A program made the translations under genes and the position numbers. Below the pieces are notes generated by a model. That model was not told the origin of the DNA. It did no database searches and worked only from the letters and a program-made list of their open reading frames with translations. Below are positions 1,779 through 63,674 of a DNA stretch of 64,000 nucleotides, piece after piece. Origin of the DNA: a bacterium (GTDB lineage: Bacteria > Patescibacteriota > Minisyncoccia > UBA6257 > JAGOQP01); the NCBI GenBank assembly GCA_021814695.1, contig JAKAHY010000002.1, positions 8,920 through 72,919 on the forward strand. The letters run 5' to 3'. Within the stretch, counting starts at the first letter, position 1. The number at the start of each line of letters is the position of its first letter.

Positions 1779-1873
1779 TCTGACGTAGTTATCGATGGTG
1801 AGTGGCGTTACTGTTTTTAACGTCCATTAGATTAACACACAAATAAGCCGTTTGCAATACTTTTGCGGCTGAT

Positions 1874-1904
1874 AAAAAAAGCCCACCGGTGTTCTGGTGG
1901 GGCG
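1874..1904 (-). terminator. Rho-independent terminator of the small GC-rich ORF
   Basis: On the minus strand, CCCACCAG-aacac-CGGTGGG followed by TTTTTTT. Confidence 0.55.
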
Positions 1905-1930
1905 CCTCGTTGGAGGCGGTTGGGAAGCGC

Positions 1931-2152
1931 TTAGCCGCGCTTCGCTTTGGAGGATGCCGAGACCTTGTGAGTCCCGGCGACGGCCACGCCGCGGTTGGCG
2001 GTGGCCAGGTCGGCCTGAGTCCTCCGCTTGGCCGCCCGGTTCGCGTGCTTGACGCTGTGACGGTCCTTGGGCGCGGTCTTGCCGCAGCGCCCGTTGGGGT
2101 GGCGGTTGCCGCCACCCGAAACCCGACAGTGACACAGTTCGCACACGGCCAT
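1931..2152 (-). CDS. Small (73 aa) highly basic Cys/His-containing protein encoded with strongly GC-rich codons; weak N-terminal resemblance to ribosomal protein bL28 (MxVCxxC...GGNRH), otherwise unknown
   Basis: ATG with strong SD GGGAGGTG 4 nt upstream, its own sigma70-like promoter and a terminator. About 68% GC with GC3-rich codons (AAG, AAC, GAC, CAC) in a roughly 40% GC genome. Confidence 0.55.
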   Translation of the reverse strand: MAVCELCHCRVSGGGNRHPNGRCGKTAPKDRHSVKHANRAAKRRTQADLATANRGVAVAGTHKVSASSKAKRG

Positions 2153-2190
2153 ATTACACCTCCCTTGTCGTTTGATTTACCGCTTTTTAT

Positions 2191-2219
2191 AACATAGCAT
2201 AACTAACTACATTTGTCAA
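2191..2219 (-). promoter_or_regulatory. Sigma70-like promoter for the GC-rich small ORF
   Basis: Minus strand: TTGACA, 17 nt spacer, TATGTT, then GGGAGGTG and ATG. Confidence 0.5.
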
Positions 2220-2231
2220 TATTTATGGGAA

Positions 2232-2266
2232 AACAAAATCACCCGCAAGGGGTGATCTTATTTTTG
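2232..2266. terminator. Bidirectional terminator (downstream of the GIY-YIG gene)
   Basis: ATCACCC-gcaa-GGGTGAT with T-runs on both sides. Confidence 0.55.
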
Positions 2267-2290: not shown

Positions 2291-2530
2291 CTAAACTAAA
2301 TGCTTGTTTCTAAAAGCTATTCCCGAACCACTTTTCAGATATTTTTCAAAGTTGATCGCCTGTTCCTTGTTATGAAAAGTGCAGTGCCAAGCAATAATAA
2401 ATGGCGCTCTACTTGAGCTATATTTGGAACCATAACTATTATGTTCCAATAGTCTTTTCTTAATATCAATTGTGATGCCCGTATAGAAACTCCCATCTTT
2501 TAAACTGCGAAGAATATAGACAAAATACAT
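2291..2530 (-). CDS. GIY-YIG nuclease-domain protein (small stand-alone UPF0213/YhbQ-like)
   Basis: 79 aa; the YFVYILRSLKDGSFYTGITIDIKKRLLEHN motif matches the GIY-YIG core. Confidence 0.85.
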   Translation of the reverse strand: MYFVYILRSLKDGSFYTGITIDIKKRLLEHNSYGSKYSSSRAPFIIAWHCTFHNKEQAINFEKYLKSGSGIAFRNKHLV

Positions 2531-2626: not shown

Positions 2627-2672
2627 CTTCTTGTGCAAGGAGTGCTTGCACTACGAAGCCTTGGCGAAGTAG

Positions 2673-2988
2673 TGGAGATGGCGAGAGTTGAACTCGCGTC
2701 CAGAAAGAGGGATTGAAAGCGTCTACGGGCGTATCTTCTTTTGGAAGCTGATTTGCTTTCTGATTGTCCCTACGGATACGAAAGCGCTTTCCGTGGGTAA
2801 GCCTCAAATATAACACCGGCGATTTCCCCATGAGACATCGGGAGCCGATGGCTTACGCACGAACTAAAAAGTTCTTAAGCGTATGCAAGTGCTACATTTC
2901 TGTTAGCAGATTTGTTTTGGCGGATTTACAAGTCGCCGCTTGACCCGCAACTTTCAAAGAACTCTATCTGTCAAAGCCCAGCATCCCC
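2673..2988 (-). ncRNA. ssrA: tmRNA (SsrA)
   Basis: Minus strand: 5' GGGGATGCTGGGCTTTGACAG... and 3' ...GGACGCGAGTTCAACTCTCGCCATCTCCA (T-arm plus acceptor, CCA not encoded). Immediately downstream of smpB. Putative tag ORF GCT AAC AGA AAT GTA GCA CTT GCA TAC GCT TAA, giving ANRNVALAYA. Confidence 0.85.
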
Positions 2989-3498: not shown

Positions 3499-5643
3499 AT
3501 GAAAAAATCTTCATTAATCGTGGTCATTTTGCTTGTTGTGGCAAGCGTAGGAATGACCGTCATCTTTTCAAATCAAGTGTCGATAAAGGGATTTCTATCG
3601 AGCGTTTATTCTACTGCATCAGGCAGAAATCATATACAGCTGGCAAACGCTCAGTCCTTGGGACAGGGGGTTGTAGTTTTTAAAGCGCAATTTGGCCATT
3701 TGGAAGCAACCGGCCAAGTTGTCTCCGGTATTTCCGGACTAGCGGGGCTGCCGGTGACAAAATTTGTTCCCGACAGAGACCTTTCGGATTCTGAAAAAAA
3801 GCAGGTTGAAGTAAACATCACCGAAGAGAACACCGTTTTCGGATTTATTGTGGCAAAAAACGTTTCATTAGGGCAGGGAATCGGTTTTAACATTCCCCAA
3901 GGAGAAGTTTATAACTACGGTTTTTATGTGAATTCCGACATCCTTCCTCAAGGATGGACATATAACTCTTCTTGCGTAGAGACGGGAGGAAATATTAAAT
4001 TATCTGCCGGCCAACAAAGCGAATGCACGATAGGTTTTTATCTGAAACCAACGCCTGCGCCGGTTACTCCTCCCGCTTCGACGTCCACTCCCGTCTCACC
4101 TCAGGAAGGAGCGTCAGGTACCGTTATTAGTGAAGATTCCGGTTCTGGATCGCTGCAGTTTGTAAAAAATATTTTGGACTTAAGTACGGGGTGGAAAAAC
4201 CCCGGATCGGATAAAATATTGGACGCAAAAATCGTTGAATTATACGGAAAGAAATTTCTTATTGTTTCGACTCAAAACAAACATTTGCTTGTTTACGATG
4301 CTTCAAACCAGTTTTCGCCGGTTCTTTTGAAAGATAATGATTTATCAGGCAGTAACGTGTCGGCGTTTTATCTTGTGGTTTTAGATAATTTCAATTACGT
4401 ATTTGCCTGGGGAGGAAACTCTGCCAACTACGGATCTTTTAAGATTGAACAAGACGGATCTGCGTCTCTGGTAAAAAGTTACAAACCTGACCAATATAGC
4501 GTTACTCAACCGAATTTGGTTTTCGGGTTGTTTAGAGGGTTAGACGGTAAAGCGTATGGATTTGGAGGGAACGGGGGCGATGGATGGCTAACTATTTATG
4601 ACGTGTCCGATCCGGCAAACATCAGCGAAATTGGATCATATCAAGATGGCTTAGTCGGGAATCACTGCGGCAATTATGGTCTGATTGGATTGGACAGGCC
4701 GCTTCAATGGAATACTTCTCAACAAGGGAACAAGCTTTATCTGGTAACTCATGCGGACCAGTGCGTCCAGCGGCTGCATACTTCCGGAGACGCCAGAATT
4801 TATATTTTTGACGTTTCTGATCCAAAAAATCCGCAGCTTTCCCATCAATATGAGCTTTCCGGTTCTTTTAACCACATACCTTCGGACGCGACTAAGGCCG
4901 AACAGACATTTCTTTTTGGCGGGATCGCCGACATTGCCGTTGATTCAAATTCGGGTAAGGTTTTTGATTTTTACAGGACGGTTTTTGATTGGCAGGGGCC
5001 ATCCTGGTCTCAGATAGCAAACATAGTGCATGGTACTTTGTTTAGATACAGAACCGGACTGGTCACTCTTTCACTGCAATCGGACGGTTCTCTAAAAGAA
5101 TTGTCGCGGGCTTTATTGTGCGAACAAAAGGGCCCAATGTATGATGGTGGCGGTCCGCAATATTATCGATGCGGCGACGTGGATGGAAACGACAAAAATA
5201 CCCAAGGCGGATATGATTATTCGGCAAGAAATTCTCAACAAAATTACAACGGAGTTTTTCTCCTCAGTGGGCCGGGAAATAGCGGTCAGGTGGGCTTACT
5301 AAGGAGTGATAATAGTTTTGTTGTCATTCCCGATACCGCCGGAGAGATGACTAAATTTAAGACGGCTATTAAAGATTCATCTTATTATTCGAATATCTAT
5401 AATCCCGCTATCAATGGTGTTGTGACCCAGGTTGACAGTAAAACATTTGCCATCTATCAATTTGATAGTTATTCGTTAAGCGTCGTTAAGGTTTTGTTGT
5501 CGCAATCTCTTGTGGGGGGATCGAAAAATCCCTCTCCTCCAGTGACCGGAGTTGCGCCTTCGGCAAACGTACCACTAACATCACCCGCATTTTCATTTAA
5601 TGCGCTCCTGAACATCTTCAGAAGGATACTTAACAACTACTAA
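3499..5643 (+). CDS. Secreted/surface LVIVD-repeat (beta-propeller) protein, paralog 1
   Basis: N-terminal signal/TM segment; repeated (Y/I)xDVSDPxNP LVIVD-like motifs; Pro/Ser/Thr linker; conserved C-terminal tail AFSFNALLNIFRRILNNY. Confidence 0.7.
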   Translation: MKKSSLIVVILLVVASVGMTVIFSNQVSIKGFLSSVYSTASGRNHIQLANAQSLGQGVVVFKAQFGHLEATGQVVSGISGLAGLPVTKFVPDRDLSDSEKKQVEVNITEENTVFGFIVAKNVSLGQGIGFNIPQGEVYNYGFYVNSDILPQGWTYNSSCVETGGNIKLSAGQQSECTIGFYLKPTPAPVTPPASTSTPVSPQEGASGTVISEDSGSGSLQFVKNILDLSTGWKNPGSDKILDAKIVELYGKKFLIVSTQNKHLLVYDASNQFSPVLLKDNDLSGSNVSAFYLVVLDNFNYVFAWGGNSANYGSFKIEQDGSASLVKSYKPDQYSVTQPNLVFGLFRGLDGKAYGFGGNGGDGWLTIYDVSDPANISEIGSYQDGLVGNHCGNYGLIGLDRPLQWNTSQQGNKLYLVTHADQCVQRLHTSGDARIYIFDVSDPKNPQLSHQYELSGSFNHIPSDATKAEQTFLFGGIADIAVDSNSGKVFDFYRTVFDWQGPSWSQIANIVHGTLFRYRTGLVTLSLQSDGSLKELSRALLCEQKGPMYDGGGPQYYRCGDVDGNDKNTQGGYDYSARNSQQNYNGVFLLSGPGNSGQVGLLRSDNSFVVIPDTAGEMTKFKTAIKDSSYYSNIYNPAINGVVTQVDSKTFAIYQFDSYSLSVVKVLLSQSLVGGSKNPSPPVTGVAPSANVPLTSPAFSFNALLNIFRRILNNY

Positions 5644-5656
5644 AAATTTAAAATAA

Positions 5657-5686
5657 AGCCCCCTGTAAATACAGGGGGCTTTTTGA
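5657..5686 (+). terminator. Rho-independent terminator
   Basis: AGCCCCCTG-taaata-CAGGGGGCT followed by TTTTT. Confidence 0.6.
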
Positions 5687-5696
5687 ATGTGATATA

Positions 5697-8321
5697 ATGA
5701 AACAAATGAAAAAAACATTACTCATCGGGTTTATTGTGGTCGGCATTGTAAGCTTTTCGGCATTTACCGCGCATGCTCAGTCGGTCAATTATCTTAGTAA
5801 ATTTTTTGCAGATGTCTACGGAGCGTTTTTTGGGAATTCCCAAACGCAAAAAGTTGACGCCCAAACAGTGGGTAATGGAACACTTACTATTCATGCTCAG
5901 ATATGTCAGACGCTCGGGAATTTCGAAAATCCAAGCAGTGCGACCTGTTCTGGTACTCCTCGCGACCCCAATTCTACGGAGTCTCCGTTATTTGTTTATG
6001 ATGTCCAGCGCATAGTTGGGAATGGAGCGAGCGCTCAAGTTACCACAGTTCTTTCAGGTATCGGTCCCGGACAAAGTTATTCGTTACCGGCGAATACTCC
6101 AAACGCTAGTAATAATAACAGAGATGAGTACGTGATTGTGTTTAAGGGGGCACCGACAAATTATTTGTACGTGAGACAAGGAGGAAATTTTGATTTGCCC
6201 TATAAATTTTCAATTTCTTCCGGACAAAATACTCAAGTAAATATTCCTTATGTTATTTATACGGCGATTGAATCAACGGGTCCTGTTGGCACTACTGTTA
6301 CCGCCGATATTGTTGATGGCAATGGAAATTTTGTCAGAGCGCTGACGGCTTCAGAAATTCAATCGGTATCCTTTGACATCCAGCATTCGGTTCCGGCCAC
6401 CGGAGGATATGTCGGATCGCATGCGAACAATTTTGATACTCAAGTTTCTTCGGGAAAATTAAATACTTCATATCAGCTTGCGACCTATGTCCATTCCGGT
6501 TCAATTTTGACAAATATTAAGCCACCATCCGGTTACGTAGTCAGATCAATTAAGCCGGGAACATATTTTGATCCTACTGATGACGTTACTATTCATTTTA
6601 CCAAGTCTCCTGTTTCGTCTCAGGTTCAAAAAGTTGATCAAATGCTCTATGTTCCTAATGGAATTAGCTATGTAAAAAAAATAGCTCAAACATATTCGGA
6701 CAATGAATACAAATATTCGAATCTTGACGTTGATTTATTTGCTTATTATGGAAACAATAATCGTCCTTTTCCCTTGAACTGGACAGTTGCCAAATATTCG
6801 GGAGTTCCTTATTTGTTTATGAATGGAGCAGGAAAGATAGTTATTTATAATATTTCCGATCCTAAAAATCCCAAACAAGTTAGTGAATATGTTCTTTCCG
6901 GTTTGGAAAAATTTAATCAATACAAAGATCGTCAGGGAAATACTTATGGACAGTGTTCTCCTAACCAAGAAGGTACTCATGATTTTATAACTGGAGCCGG
7001 TAAAGTTTTTGCTCTTGATGATTCCCCTTATCTTTTGATTGACATTCAGAGACCGGGTGGGCCAGGCCCTGGAGGGACGGCAGTTTTGTCCTTAGATCCT
7101 TCAACTATGGCCATAACCGCCTATCCTCAATGGACCGAGTGTAACAGTGGTCAAGATACTCCCGGAACCGCTTTCGGAATGTATAAAGGAAGTGACGGAA
7201 ATACTTATTTTATTTCCCAATTCCCGAATAATGCATATGATACGGGTGGAGTAGATACCGGGAATATTGGTATTTACACAATCAATTCTGCTGGTATTGC
7301 CAATAAAGTTGTCGTTCTCAGCGGAATGTCCGGGATTGCTCCGAGTTTGGATTATTCTAATGGAACAATCTCTGTTGTTTCCGTTGGAAGTAAAAAATAT
7401 CTTATTGGTAATGGAAAATCATCTATCGCAAACATAAATTCGACCAGTGCACCAATTTATATTTACGATATTTCCAATCCAAAAAATATAATCAAAATCA
7501 ATCAACAGATCACGGTGTCTACGTCTGGGTCCGGCAGATTAAAAATTGACGAACAAGCCAATCGTATGTATGTTCAGTCATCCATTCCAAATCCTGCCGC
7601 AACATCAACTTCGTACACCATCCCCAAAACATTACCTATTTGGCAGGTATATGACTTGAGTGTTTTGCCCAGTACTCCAAAATTAATTGCTACTTATAAC
7701 AAACCAACCGACCTACTTAATTCAAGTCAAGTGAATGCTGATTTTTCTCAAATTACCAAGAGATTAAATATTGCATCGTCAGGTAATCTTGTGGATATAA
7801 ATAATTCTTCTTTCACTTACGGCGCCTACGGATATTCTTCTTCACTCCAGTTGATAAATGTTTCAAATAATTTAGCTTATATATCACTGTATACAAACGG
7901 AAAAAACCCTTGGGATACGATTGCCAATCAAGCCGGAGTAACGGACGGAAGCGAATACGGGACCAATGCTATTCAATTTATAGTTGACGTGTCCAATGCG
8001 TCCAGTCCCAAAATACTTGGAATGATATTCGGGCATACGGAATATTCTGCTTACGGACTTTCCGCCGGCGGATGGTTTGATGTTCCTCTTTACGGAAGTA
8101 TCTATAACTATAACGGATATATTTACCGAGCCAATTTCCGCATCGCTGATGTATGGAAATTGGGGAATCCTCCGGCCCAAAGTACGGGAGGTGCTGGAAG
8201 TGGGGCTGGTGCGAGCGGCACTGGAACTACCGAAGGAGGATCTGCGCCATCATCAGTTCAATCTCCATTTTCTTTCAGTTCTCTTTTGAAGATATTCCAG
8301 AGAGTGTTTAATAATCAATAA
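5697..8321 (+). CDS. Secreted LVIVD-repeat protein, paralog 2 (874 aa)
   Basis: Signal peptide; IYNISDPKNPK and IYDISNPKNI repeats; Gly/Ser/Thr linker; tail PFSFSSLLKIFQRVFNNQ. The likely start may be the second ATG at 5706, which would make the mRNA leaderless. Confidence 0.65.
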   Translation: MKQMKKTLLIGFIVVGIVSFSAFTAHAQSVNYLSKFFADVYGAFFGNSQTQKVDAQTVGNGTLTIHAQICQTLGNFENPSSATCSGTPRDPNSTESPLFVYDVQRIVGNGASAQVTTVLSGIGPGQSYSLPANTPNASNNNRDEYVIVFKGAPTNYLYVRQGGNFDLPYKFSISSGQNTQVNIPYVIYTAIESTGPVGTTVTADIVDGNGNFVRALTASEIQSVSFDIQHSVPATGGYVGSHANNFDTQVSSGKLNTSYQLATYVHSGSILTNIKPPSGYVVRSIKPGTYFDPTDDVTIHFTKSPVSSQVQKVDQMLYVPNGISYVKKIAQTYSDNEYKYSNLDVDLFAYYGNNNRPFPLNWTVAKYSGVPYLFMNGAGKIVIYNISDPKNPKQVSEYVLSGLEKFNQYKDRQGNTYGQCSPNQEGTHDFITGAGKVFALDDSPYLLIDIQRPGGPGPGGTAVLSLDPSTMAITAYPQWTECNSGQDTPGTAFGMYKGSDGNTYFISQFPNNAYDTGGVDTGNIGIYTINSAGIANKVVVLSGMSGIAPSLDYSNGTISVVSVGSKKYLIGNGKSSIANINSTSAPIYIYDISNPKNIIKINQQITVSTSGSGRLKIDEQANRMYVQSSIPNPAATSTSYTIPKTLPIWQVYDLSVLPSTPKLIATYNKPTDLLNSSQVNADFSQITKRLNIASSGNLVDINNSSFTYGAYGYSSSLQLINVSNNLAYISLYTNGKNPWDTIANQAGVTDGSEYGTNAIQFIVDVSNASSPKILGMIFGHTEYSAYGLSAGGWFDVPLYGSIYNYNGYIYRANFRIADVWKLGNPPAQSTGGAGSGAGASGTGTTEGGSAPSSVQSPFSFSSLLKIFQRVFNNQ

Positions 8322-28683: not shown

Positions 28684-28897
28684 AATAAACGAATAAGAAT
28701 GCCTTGTGTTTCAGTTGTTTTAGCAGGCATTCTCGTAGTTTTAAGCCCCCTTTTCTGGGGGCATACCACATTATGGCATATATCCTTGAGAAAGGGAAGG
28801 AATATTCAAAGGATGGCTACTTTAGTAACCGAACGGAATAGTAGTATTGACTAATATGTTATATTATGTTAATATTATGGCAGAAAGGAGATTGCCC

Positions 28898-29116
28898 ATG
28901 AACAGCACGAATAAGCGGAGGGGTTGGATCGGCGTGATCGGGGCGGCGGGGTTGGCGGTTCTGTTATACGCCAACACTCTCAATGTTGTGGCTCATATGG
29001 CCAGCGGCCGCGGCTCGTTGGGTTTGGGCATCCCGCTCGCCCTCATATTCGGTGGCGGGACCTACTTCTTCGGGGACATCGCGCTCAAGAAGGCGAGGTA
29101 TCTCGCCAGCCACTAG
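28898..29116 (+). CDS. Small (72 aa) two-TM membrane protein encoded with GC-rich codons
   Basis: ATG with SD AAAGGAG; promoter TTGACT-17-TAATAT at 28847-28875; terminator hairpin at about 29135-29165; about 62% GC. Confidence 0.5.
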   Translation: MNSTNKRRGWIGVIGAAGLAVLLYANTLNVVAHMASGRGSLGLGIPLALIFGGGTYFFGDIALKKARYLASH

Positions 29117-29233
29117 CAGTTCTTTGTTTCGTTCGACGTGAACGGTTCTACGGAGCCGTTCCTTTTTTTATCCCACACCTTTTATTTGCAAATAAAAGAT
29201 GCGGGATTTTATAAACCCTGGTAATATGAGGCA

Positions 29234-62459: not shown

Positions 62460-63674
62460 ATGAAGTTCAAATATCAAGCCAGAAATAAAACAGGGGAATT
62501 ACAGGTGGGATTTGTTGAGGCTACCACGAGAGATGCGGCTTCCAACACCCTTACTTCCCATGACCTCTACGTTCTTAGCATTGAATCGGCGGAGAAAAAG
62601 AGCGTCTTTGACGCACTAACCAAAGTTTTCAAGAGAGTAAAAACAAAAGACCTGATGATATTTACCAGACAGCTGGCGACTCTTTTGGAATCCCAAATGC
62701 CTCTTAATAATGCACTGCAATCTTTGTATCAGCAGACTAATAACGAAACACTCAAAGAGTCGGTTTTTTTGATACTTCAGGACGTAGAAGCGGGACTTTC
62801 TTTGTCACAAGCTCTTGAGAGGCAGCGGCCGATATTTTCCGAATTTTATGTGAGCATGGTACGTTCGGCCGAAGTCACCGGACGTCTTGAGGAGGCGATG
62901 ACTTTTTTGGCTTATTACATAGAACGCGAAGCTAAATGGAAAGGAAAAATCGGCAATGCTCTTATTTATCCGGCAGTTCTTTTGGGTATGTTTGTCATAG
63001 TTGCCGGAATTATGGTTGCGGTGGTATTTCCTAAAATTCAGCCTGTTTTTACCGAAAGCAATGTCCAGCTTCCGTTTGTCACCCAGGCTTTAATGTCCGG
63101 GGGACAGTTAATTAGCAATTGGTGGTGGTTGGTGATTTTGGTTATGGCGGGCATAGTTTTTATTATCGTCGACTATCTTAGGAGCAATGAAGGAAAGGCG
63201 GTGGGCAACCAGCTGATATTGGTCATCCCCGTATTTGGAGAGCTTTTTAAAAAAATATATATCGCCCGTTTTTGCCAATCCCTTAGCGTTTTAATCAAAG
63301 GAGGCATTCCCATAACTCAGGCAATCGAAATAGCATCTTCTACTATTAACAACGTTATATACGAAGAAGTATTAAAACAAATAGCCGAAGGCGTCAGAGG
63401 TGGCGCGCTGTTTTCCCAGCTTCTGGGGGACAACATTAAATATTTTCCGATAATGGTCAGTCAAATGGCGGCAGTAGGAGAAACTACCGGCAGAGTGGAC
63501 GAAATGATGAATAAAATCGCGGATTTTTATGACAGCGAAGTAAACGATATGATGGCCAATCTTTCGGAATTAATTCAACCTATTTTAATTCTTATTATCG
63601 GCGTATTAATTGCCCTGCTATTTGCCGCCATTCTTCTTCCTATTTACAATATGGCCCAAACATTTAAAATATAA
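62460..63674 (+). CDS. pilC: Type IV pilus platform protein PilC (GspF family)
   Basis: Two GspF repeats and 3 TM segments. Confidence 0.9.
   Translation: MKFKYQARNKTGELQVGFVEATTRDAASNTLTSHDLYVLSIESAEKKSVFDALTKVFKRVKTKDLMIFTRQLATLLESQMPLNNALQSLYQQTNNETLKESVFLILQDVEAGLSLSQALERQRPIFSEFYVSMVRSAEVTGRLEEAMTFLAYYIEREAKWKGKIGNALIYPAVLLGMFVIVAGIMVAVVFPKIQPVFTESNVQLPFVTQALMSGGQLISNWWWLVILVMAGIVFIIVDYLRSNEGKAVGNQLILVIPVFGELFKKIYIARFCQSLSVLIKGGIPITQAIEIASSTINNVIYEEVLKQIAEGVRGGALFSQLLGDNIKYFPIMVSQMAAVGETTGRVDEMMNKIADFYDSEVNDMMANLSELIQPILILIIGVLIALLFAAILLPIYNMAQTFKI

Follow-up and report, generated by a model that had tools for sequence, protein, structure and literature searches.

Why should a gene of 73 codons, in a genome of about 41% GC, end nearly all of those codons in G or C? 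The gene lies on the minus strand of a 64,000-nucleotide stretch of contig JAKAHY010000002.1 (positions 8,920 to 72,919; the whole stretch is called the window here) and encodes a small basic protein with a predicted metal-binding knuckle. A first-pass annotation, made from the letters of the window alone, had explained the composition by transfer from a high-GC donor. We consider a different account probable, though by no means assured: an autonomous cassette for a protein of a zinc-knuckle-type family would have been inserted and then vertically inherited, the G or C content at its third codon positions (GC3) would be actively maintained by selection for a stable message, and its product would act on nucleic acid.

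The compositional signal is sharply bounded. Measured over 290-bp segments, GC content in the window averages 41.3% (standard deviation 4.3%) and reaches its maximum, 68.6%, at 1881–2170 (z = 6.3), the runner-up peak being 57.9%. The GC-rich patch runs from the start codon to the terminator of the 73-residue open reading frame (ORF); the 5′ untranslated region (UTR) and the promoter are AT-rich. The ORF itself is 69.4% GC, with 0.64, 0.60 and 0.85 at the first, second and third codon positions, and GC3 is 0.34–0.48 in the neighboring infC, rpmI, rplT, smpB and GIY-YIG genes and 0.40 in the window background. Synonymous choices lean the same way (AAG:AAA 6:1, AAC:AAT 4:0, GAC:GAT 2:0 and CAC:CAT 5:0, for which the background fractions of AAG, AAC, GAC and CAC are 0.23–0.35). 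The same residues encoded under the codon usage of the window would be expected to give 30.2 ± 4.1 codons ending in G or C, against the 63 of 73 present (z = 8.1), and the maximum in 200,000 simulations was 48 or below. About half of the GC excess of the ORF comes from its amino-acid content (expected GC 0.54) and the remainder from codon choice. Both compositional claims of the first-pass annotation, a patch of about 290 bp and 68% GC matching a 73-residue ORF plus terminator, and foreign, GC3-rich codons, thus hold, on the minus strand. MazF-type avoidance of ACA was rejected, as ACA is present in the ORF (judged by eye). The second GC peak of the window (57.9% over 28873–29162) covers an 89-residue ORF (28847–29116, plus strand) that is hydrophobic, rich in glycine and alanine and has the look of a small membrane protein; a 307-residue ORF lies just downstream, and neither the peak nor its ORF is related to the 73-residue gene.

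The patch is the body of an autonomous cassette of about 330 bp (within 2219..1874, minus strand), comprising promoter, Shine–Dalgarno (SD) sequence, ORF and terminator. In the direction of transcription, its elements and boundaries are as follows.

2238–2256, minus strand: terminator hairpin of the upstream unit (copy of the transfer-messenger RNA (tmRNA) 3′ end plus terminator), the left cassette boundary, with the cassette promoter directly after it.
2191–2219, minus strand: sigma-70-type promoter, with −35 TTGACA (2219–2214), a 17-nt spacer containing TG, and −10 TATGTT (2196–2191).
2157–2164, minus strand: SD sequence GGGAGGTG, 4 nt ahead of the ATG.
1931–2152, minus strand: coding sequence (CDS) of the 73-residue basic protein, stop included, with the ATG at 2152, the knuckle C4-x2-C7...H18-x4-C23, a predicted basic helix at about residues 31–52, and the C-terminal motif RGVAVAGTHKVSASSK.
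1903–1918, minus strand: 3′-UTR hairpin CGCCUC-CAAC-GAGGCG, whose CCUCC could instead pair with the SD sequence.
1874–1901, minus strand: intrinsic terminator, with the stem CCCACCAG/CCGGTGGG (1901–1882) followed by T7 (1880–1874).
1829–1857, minus strand: infC promoter TTGCAA-17-TAATCT, the right cassette boundary, kept in the orthologs as well as in L048, a relative whose site is empty.

The cassette promoter matches the consensus at 10 of 12 positions and is the top-scoring site in the 3 kb scanned. Its −35 element is kept in four aligned orthologs, where the −10 element reads TATGTT or TATATT. The G-rich SD sequence is common to all orthologs and to other family loci, a terminator stands at the equivalent position in all orthologs, and the arrangement at the left boundary, a terminator and then the cassette promoter, is repeated in locus L003. 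The promoter, SD sequence and AT-rich 5′ region that had been reported for the gene are all present where they were placed. A role as leader peptide of infC was rejected, as a terminator and a separate infC promoter intervene.

Four diverged orthologs (63–82% identity) make, together with the window, a set of five syntenic orthologs. Three of them (L001, L002 and L003) have the AT-rich promoter, the SD sequence, the terminator and the downstream infC promoter in common with the window, and the fifth member of the set, L047, the SD sequence and the terminator. All of the ortholog CDSs are 68–69% GC and are embedded in DNA of 41–46% GC.

The bias extends beyond this clade. For each of 20 family loci, an expected GC3 was derived from the same amino acids under local codon usage, and the observed value lies above it in all 20 (mean excess +0.21, range +0.02 to +0.42), even in a contig of 72% GC (L011). 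The excess is larger in the clade of the window (+0.30 to +0.42) than in the rest of the family, and it tracks the background with an offset. In two further clades (L045/L060 and L036/L052), synonymous sites have reached saturation in the cassette as in the genes around it, and yet both copies carry the excess (GC3 0.58/0.70 against 0.33–0.41 in the former, and 0.62/0.80 against 0.50/0.53 in the latter). Since the excess is found at 20 of 20 loci and within saturated pairs, it looks like an equilibrium property of the gene family, sustained by a persistent directional force, and not like the residue of a recent import.

Comparison of the orthologs with their flanking genes points in the same direction. 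Between the window and L002, synonymous divergence (dS) is 0.82–1.5 in the flanking genes and 0.55 in the cassette; between the window and L003, it is 2.0 in smpB and 0.66 in the cassette, and nonsynonymous divergence (dN) of the cassette equals or exceeds that of its neighbors. Because the cassette has a lower dS than its flanks at a dN that is as high or higher, its synonymous sites appear to be constrained. Among the codons for residues unchanged in the five orthologs, 15 are invariant with G or C, none is invariant with A or T, 8 vary between G and C only, and 15 vary between weak (A or T; W) and strong (G or C; S) bases. The minority states of the last group are scattered over the lineages and run in both directions, W→S as well as S→W.

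The force most likely to hold GC3 up would be selection, at the level of the RNA, for a very stably folded message, which would yield a long-lived and constitutively expressed transcript. The predicted fold of the transcript has an energy of −150 kcal/mol (z = −3.6 against dinucleotide shuffles), and that of the 222-nt CDS about −107 kcal/mol, roughly twofold the −35 to −60 kcal/mol of equal lengths of neighboring genes. Codon order also favors folding, the sign being modest but consistent: against synonymous codon shuffles, the mean z of 20 family CDSs is about −1.2 (18 of 20 negative, best −3.5), and that of 17 control segments of the window is −0.27. In four of the five orthologs, the consensus fold pairs the SD columns (49–55) with the CCUCC element of the 3′-UTR, without covariation support; sequestration of the SD sequence by this element is a lead only.

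How did the cassette come to its present position? The proposed course is an insertion between the tmRNA region and the infC–rpmI–rplT operon, in the ancestor of one subclade, followed by vertical descent. Locus L048, whose L20 protein is 84% identical to that of the window, has the same neighborhood of smpB, GIY-YIG gene, tmRNA and infC–rpmI–rplT without the family gene or the GC patch, and the Wolfebacteria-like L049 has the smpB–tmRNA–infC site, again without either. In the alignment, a segment of about 330 bp, bounded by the tmRNA-type terminator on one side and the −35 element of infC on the other, is either cleanly present or cleanly absent. As the site is empty in L048 and L049, insertion into this lineage is the parsimonious reading. 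The cassette ends show no recombinase, repeats or target-site duplication, the only repeat-like echo between them being TATTGCAAAC at the infC promoter and TATTGACAAA at the cassette −35.

In other lineages, the family gene occupies unrelated sites. It lies between rpsJ and rplC of a tuf–rpsJ–rplC–rplD–rplW–rplB cluster in L078, with its own promoter (TTGACA-17-TATCAT), SD sequence (GAGGAGG) and terminator, and the same cassette organization, with an own promoter and terminator, is also found in L045, L044 and L036. Translation genes thus form the neighborhood in two of about 13 independent contexts (upstream of infC here and rpsJ–rplC in L078). Mobile DNA is nearby in several: an IS481-type transposase gene in L001, a DUF932 gene in L069, the phage-like contig L011, and the tmRNA insertion hotspot of the window. 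We note that two independent mini-cassettes interrupt the S10 operon of the patescibacterial locus L078 (3760–4660, minus strand) between rpsJ and rplC: the first encodes a 73-residue protein with two transmembrane segments (4514..4293), the second is that of the family gene (4172..3963), and each has a TTGACATATCT... promoter and a terminator of its own. We note further that the IS481-type transposase gene of L001 (rve domain; 4000–4881) replaces the tmRNA side of the locus and ends about 120 bp before the cassette start codon.

The main rival to selection on the message is GC-biased gene conversion, or recurrent exchange. A real gene would then have its GC held high, without any selection on the message, through frequent recombination or exchange of a mobile cassette among Patescibacteria. 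The cassette-like structure, the variable locations, the presence or absence between relatives and the mobile-DNA contexts just listed are all in keeping with such a process, as are a GC3 excess that follows the background with an offset and the lack of a specific conserved RNA helix. Within the clade, however, the order of divergence of the orthologs is that of their flanking genes (L002 being closer than L003), with no sign of recent exchange; the cassette ends bear none of the recombinase genes, repeats or target-site duplications named above; and the somewhat better folding of family CDSs than of their codon-shuffled versions is not predicted by conversion alone. We regard this explanation as unlikely, while giving it a real share of the probability.

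Rather less probable is the proposal of the first-pass annotation, a recent xenolog from a high-GC organism whose codons are not yet ameliorated. Its factual premises stand: the composition is extreme for the genome (GC3 0.85–0.86 against 0.40), L048 and L049 lack the gene at this site, its neighbors include mobile DNA (the GIY-YIG gene at the tmRNA hotspot, and the transposase gene of L001), and one member lies on a phage-like contig of 72% GC. What does not stand is the view that the composition is the mark, not yet ameliorated, of a high-GC donor. The five syntenic orthologs still have a GC3 of 0.77–0.86, and with flanking genes at a dS of 0.8–2.0, neutral sites would have relaxed to about 0.4, which disfavors an unameliorated import. 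In addition, synonymous changes run toward W and toward S alike, and the excess is shared by all 20 loci, including the saturated pairs. The larger excess of the window clade (+0.3 to +0.4) does fit a later arrival from a GC-richer Patescibacterium, which could be a minor component of the explanation for the extreme GC3 of this clade.

The distribution of the family bears on the same question. Initial automatic locus searches of genome and metagenome collections found no member; a degenerate DNA pattern for the N-terminal motif, with hits filtered by the hidden Markov model (HMM) of the family, succeeded. In the GTDB collection (185,579 species, one genome each), the pattern gave 17 matches, of which the HMM confirmed five, three in Saccharibacteria and one each in Niyogibacteria and Paceibacterota. 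The same pattern and HMM added nine distinct members from metagenomes, and one NCBI entry of the family is labeled Parcubacteria. As for the window, the named proteins most similar to its L20 come from Candidatus Paceibacterota (83%) and Wolfebacteria (80%), which makes the host a Patescibacterium resembling these two groups. Two motif patterns found no true family member in IMG/VR, and a tblastn search of a phage collection with the L011 member gave no match. All taxonomically labeled members are thus Patescibacteria, and the family appears, from these collections, to occur almost only in that group (the candidate phyla radiation), where it is patchy and rare. No close high-GC relative was found among the 5.8 billion plus 1.84 billion proteins searched; beyond the clade, identity does not exceed 49% even for the closest relatives, those that carry labels are Patescibacteria, and the loci examined lie in DNA of 40–57% GC.

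The unlabeled member on L011 stands apart. Its contig carries a phage-like run of small overlapping genes (HTH_3, HTH_17; L011 1–4860), a 336-residue neighbor is 42% identical to a protein of Myxococcus phage Mx4, and the family gene has a GC3 of 1.00. This member indicates that the family also crosses into high-GC mobile DNA, a phage or prophage of a high-GC bacterium, yet it is distant and not a close donor.

Is the protein made, or is the ORF secondary to an RNA? Among the orthologs, the ratio of nonsynonymous to synonymous differences (pN/pS) is lowest in the frame of the ORF (0.33–0.62), whereas the remaining five frames give values near 1 or inconsistent ones, on which ground antisense and overlapping ORFs in the patch were rejected. 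The dN/dS of the gene across the orthologs is 0.25–0.59. At three positions, a retained serine is encoded by TCN in some orthologs and by AGC in others, indels among family members are whole codons, and the 73-residue protein recurs unchanged on 13 contigs that were assembled independently, from different samples, in ENA, Logan and NCBI. To judge from the frame-specific pN/pS, the serine switches, the whole-codon indels and the 13 contigs together, the ORF is a genuine protein-coding gene under protein-level selection.

A structured non-coding or dual-function RNA, in which the ORF would be incidental or secondary, is very improbable beside this evidence. A GC-rich island in an AT-rich genome usually marks a structured RNA, and both the folding of the transcript and the possible pairing of the SD sequence with the 3′-UTR in four of five orthologs are what such an RNA would lead one to expect. 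The substitution pattern is that of a protein, with a low pN/pS in the ORF frame alone, GC content has a periodicity of GC3 > GC1 > GC2, and the Cys/His and C-terminal motifs are kept in members as little as 24% identical to the window protein. Covariation support is absent, and comparison with Rfam gave nothing at the gathering threshold and, at E ≤ 10, no more than chance-level hits.

What kind of protein is encoded? The 73-residue product has an isoelectric point (pI) of 11.3 and a net charge of +13. An exhaustive HMMER scan of 1.84 billion representative proteins with the ortholog profile gave 14 clusters at 50% identity, and a profile search of 5.8 billion proteins gave 38 proteins, every one of which is unnamed or "hypothetical". 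Members are 64–98 residues long and share an N-terminal motif, C-x2-C-x3-V-x-G-G-G-[ND]-R-H-x4-C, in which the final ligand is sometimes His, a middle region rich in Lys and Arg, and a C-terminal motif, R-G-V-A-V-A-G-[TV]-[GH]-K-x-S-A-S-S-K. In the alignment of 41 sequences, C4 and H18 are invariant, C7 is conserved in at least 90%, and position 23 is Cys, or His in some. As H18 and C23 are conserved and C9 is not, the metal site is likely formed by C4, C7, H18 and C23. The CxxCxC cluster pointed out in the first-pass annotation is present in this protein (C4-x2-C7-x-C9), but its third cysteine is not a family feature; the broader description given there, of a small, basic Cys/His protein that probably binds zinc, is borne out by the pI, the charge and the conserved ligand pattern.

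Searches for relatives of known function gave little. Pfam and NCBIfam have no match to the ORF, and none of the 41 members matches a ribosomal, HNH or zf-CCHC model of Pfam, or any model of PHROG or PADLOC (for the anti-phage defense models of PADLOC, none at E ≤ 0.1); in NCBIfam, only 2 of the 41 give weak zinc-finger matches. Searched against all PDB chains, the family profile has no match at E ≤ 10, and a Foldseek search with the AlphaFold2 (AF2) model finds nothing significant in PDB or BFVD. Full-text searching of the published literature found no description of the family. By these comparisons, the protein appears to belong to a small unnamed family without detectable relatives among known families.

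The AF2 model, built on the 41-sequence alignment, is of low confidence overall, with a predicted local distance difference test (pLDDT) score of 63.6; it has an N-terminal knuckle of moderate confidence (about 77), one helix at residues 31–52 and the remainder unstructured. Small proteins that fold on nucleic acid have a similar appearance, and we propose, at roughly even odds, that the product is a putative zinc-knuckle nucleic-acid-binding protein associated with RNA or the ribosome. This association is proposed because of the charge, the four-ligand knuckle, the disorder, the strong constitutive expression signals and the two placements among translation genes; the protein would fold on its nucleic-acid target, with RNA or the ribosome as the first candidate. 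Alternatively, it could bind DNA or have a regulatory role. The patchy and rare distribution, the cassette behavior and the occurrence of a relative in the early region of a phage all favor an accessory function over one in the core machinery. Three other roles were rejected: a ribosomally synthesized and post-translationally modified peptide precursor, as no modifying enzymes are adjacent in any family context; a secreted effector, as a signal peptide and a transmembrane segment are absent; and a type I toxin, as the protein is not hydrophobic.

Kinship with ribosomal protein bL28, or with some other small zinc protein of the ribosome, as a divergent or truncated paralog is highly improbable. 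In its favor are the small size, basic character and zinc type of the protein, a local likeness of its C-x2-C ... G-N-x-H to the bL28 N-terminus, which the first-pass annotation had also remarked on, and the position of the gene upstream of infC–rpmI–rplT here and inside the S10 operon in L078. The local likeness is present but at the level of chance: hhalign against four bL28 sequences (the E. coli query being verified against PDB) gives a probability of 4.4% over 20 columns, and tblastn with bL28 queries gives E values of 2.7–4.7. None of the 41 members matches Ribosomal_L28 or another ribosomal Pfam family at E ≤ 1, the ORF itself has no Ribosomal_L28 match at E ≤ 10, and neither the PDB profile search nor Foldseek found anything significant. 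No rpmB gene was found within the 64-kb window.

An assembly chimera or contaminant fragment, which the abrupt switch of composition at the ORF borders might suggest, is next to impossible given the same junctions on the 13 contigs, from different samples and assemblers, and the conservation of the AT-rich flanks in four diverged orthologs.

Several observations weigh against the account that we prefer, of a maintained, message-selected cassette encoding a nucleic-acid-binding protein. Gain rather than loss at the insertion site is polarized by two relatives only. The background codon usage behind the GC3 expectations was derived from crude sets of long ORFs, and GC-biased gene conversion, or repeated exchange among Patescibacteria, would also keep GC3 high. 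With regard to folding, the codon-shuffle effect is modest, the family sequences are non-independent and the controls are slightly negative too; the covariation term of RNAalifold is unfavorable (+5.68), with compensatory changes in only 5 of 68 pairs; and only the subclade has the GGUGGCGG/CCGCCACC hairpin that spans the GGGNRH codons, which was rejected as a conserved feature of the whole family (mean z −0.5). As to function, two translation contexts in about 13 would arise by chance with a probability of about 5–10%, a rough estimate, most contexts being unrelated to translation, and the patchy and rare distribution speaks against a core ribosomal role.

A stronger version of the preferred account can be framed, and we hold it to be doubtful. 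The protein would be a Patescibacteria-specific, ribosome- or RNA-associated zinc-knuckle protein, its gene would be under strong selection at synonymous sites on account of a functional mRNA, an exceptionally stable or self-regulating message of dual function, perhaps with its SD sequence sequestered by the CCUCC element of the 3′-UTR, and the cassette would spread, without a recombinase of its own, between lineages and into the phages of high-GC bacteria.

Two other parts of the window merit description in their own right. On the minus strand, the tmRNA (2988..2670) is followed by the GIY-YIG gene (2530..2291), and the 3′ end of the tmRNA, CAACTCTCGCCATCTCCAC, recurs directly after this nuclease gene as CAACTCTCCCATCTCCAC (copies at 2690–2672 and 2283–2266). 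Because the tmRNA 3′ end is repeated after the gene, the GIY-YIG unit of about 390 bp looks like an insertion into ssrA that regenerates the 3′ end, and the copy bears the tmRNA-type terminator (2256–2238). In relatives, an insert of about 170–190 bp without a GIY-YIG gene lies at the same place (L003 1374–1440/1583–1635; L048 2911–2933/3108–3131; L002 about 1000–1125), flanked by the tmRNA 3′ end and its copy. It starts with GAGATGGAGG and finishes with CCATCTCCAC; the two ends could pair in the manner of an acceptor stem, and the insert could represent either an element in decay or a small RNA resembling a tRNA. On the plus strand, 3499–8321 encodes two large, paralogous-looking secreted or surface proteins of 714 and 874 residues, with a weak LVIVD repeat match and a common C-terminal tail (…SPFSFxxLLxIFxRxxNN), whose genes adjoin type IV pilus genes (T2SSE at 97–705 and a PilC-like gene at 62460–63674).

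The family is new, concrete and testable. A large part of bacterial diversity belongs to the Patescibacteria, which have reduced genomes and ribosomes and mostly unknown lineage-specific proteins, and here the gene encodes a small putative zinc-knuckle protein with strong expression signals, sometimes inside ribosomal-protein operons. It is also a natural case of synonymous sites far from mutational equilibrium (GC3 of about 0.85 in a genome of 41% GC), which could separate selection on mRNA folding from biased gene conversion. For screens of horizontal transfer it is a caution, in that a compositional island need not be a recent import.

The general kind to which the gene belongs, a small basic zinc-knuckle protein in a moron-like cassette, is already known; the family is unnamed. 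Its likeness to bL28 (Ribosomal_L28) lies in the small size, the basic character and an N-terminal Cys followed by Gly-Asn-x-His, the segment aligned by hhalign being MAVCELCHCRVSGGGNR-HPN. The register of the motif differs, however, and the basic helix and the RGVAVAGTGKxSASSK tail of the family are without a counterpart in bL28, which is near-universal and single-copy, whereas the family is a rare one, of 14 clusters, and close relatives lack it at the syntenic site. The protein resembles bL36, bL31, bL33 and uS14 in size, in its very high pI, in having a Cys/His site of four ligands, in being disordered away from the ribosome and in the strength of its expression signals. Unlike these proteins, with which it has no detectable homology, it is patchy and not universal, and it is encoded in an independent cassette and not as an operon member.

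Among zinc knuckles, the HVO_2753-family and other zinc-finger micro-proteins (NCBIfam NF041909 and PRK14890) are likewise very small C-x2-C knuckle proteins, to which 2 of the 41 members give weak matches (best E 2e-4). The window protein gives no such match, its C-x2-C-x10-H-x4-C differs from their four CPxCG motifs, and those families are archaeal. The CCHC knuckle of retroviral nucleocapsid (C-x2-C-x4-H-x4-C) has the same order of ligands, a basic context and a presumed binding of single-stranded nucleic acid in common with the family, but only 4 residues between the second Cys and the His, in place of the 10 that are filled here by the invariant V-x-GGG-[ND]-R loop, and zf-CCHC of Pfam has no match to the family.

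The morons of lambdoid phages are autonomous units of promoter, gene and terminator with deviant base composition. Like them, the cassette has its own sigma-70 promoter and intrinsic terminator, a deviant composition, a presence/absence distribution and a placement between the genes of conserved operons. In contrast to them, it resides in a bacterial chromosome and not in a prophage (its neighbors being the tmRNA, the GIY-YIG gene and infC), with only L011 being phage-like, and its deviant composition appears to have been kept over a long time, where a transient import would have left only a passing signature.

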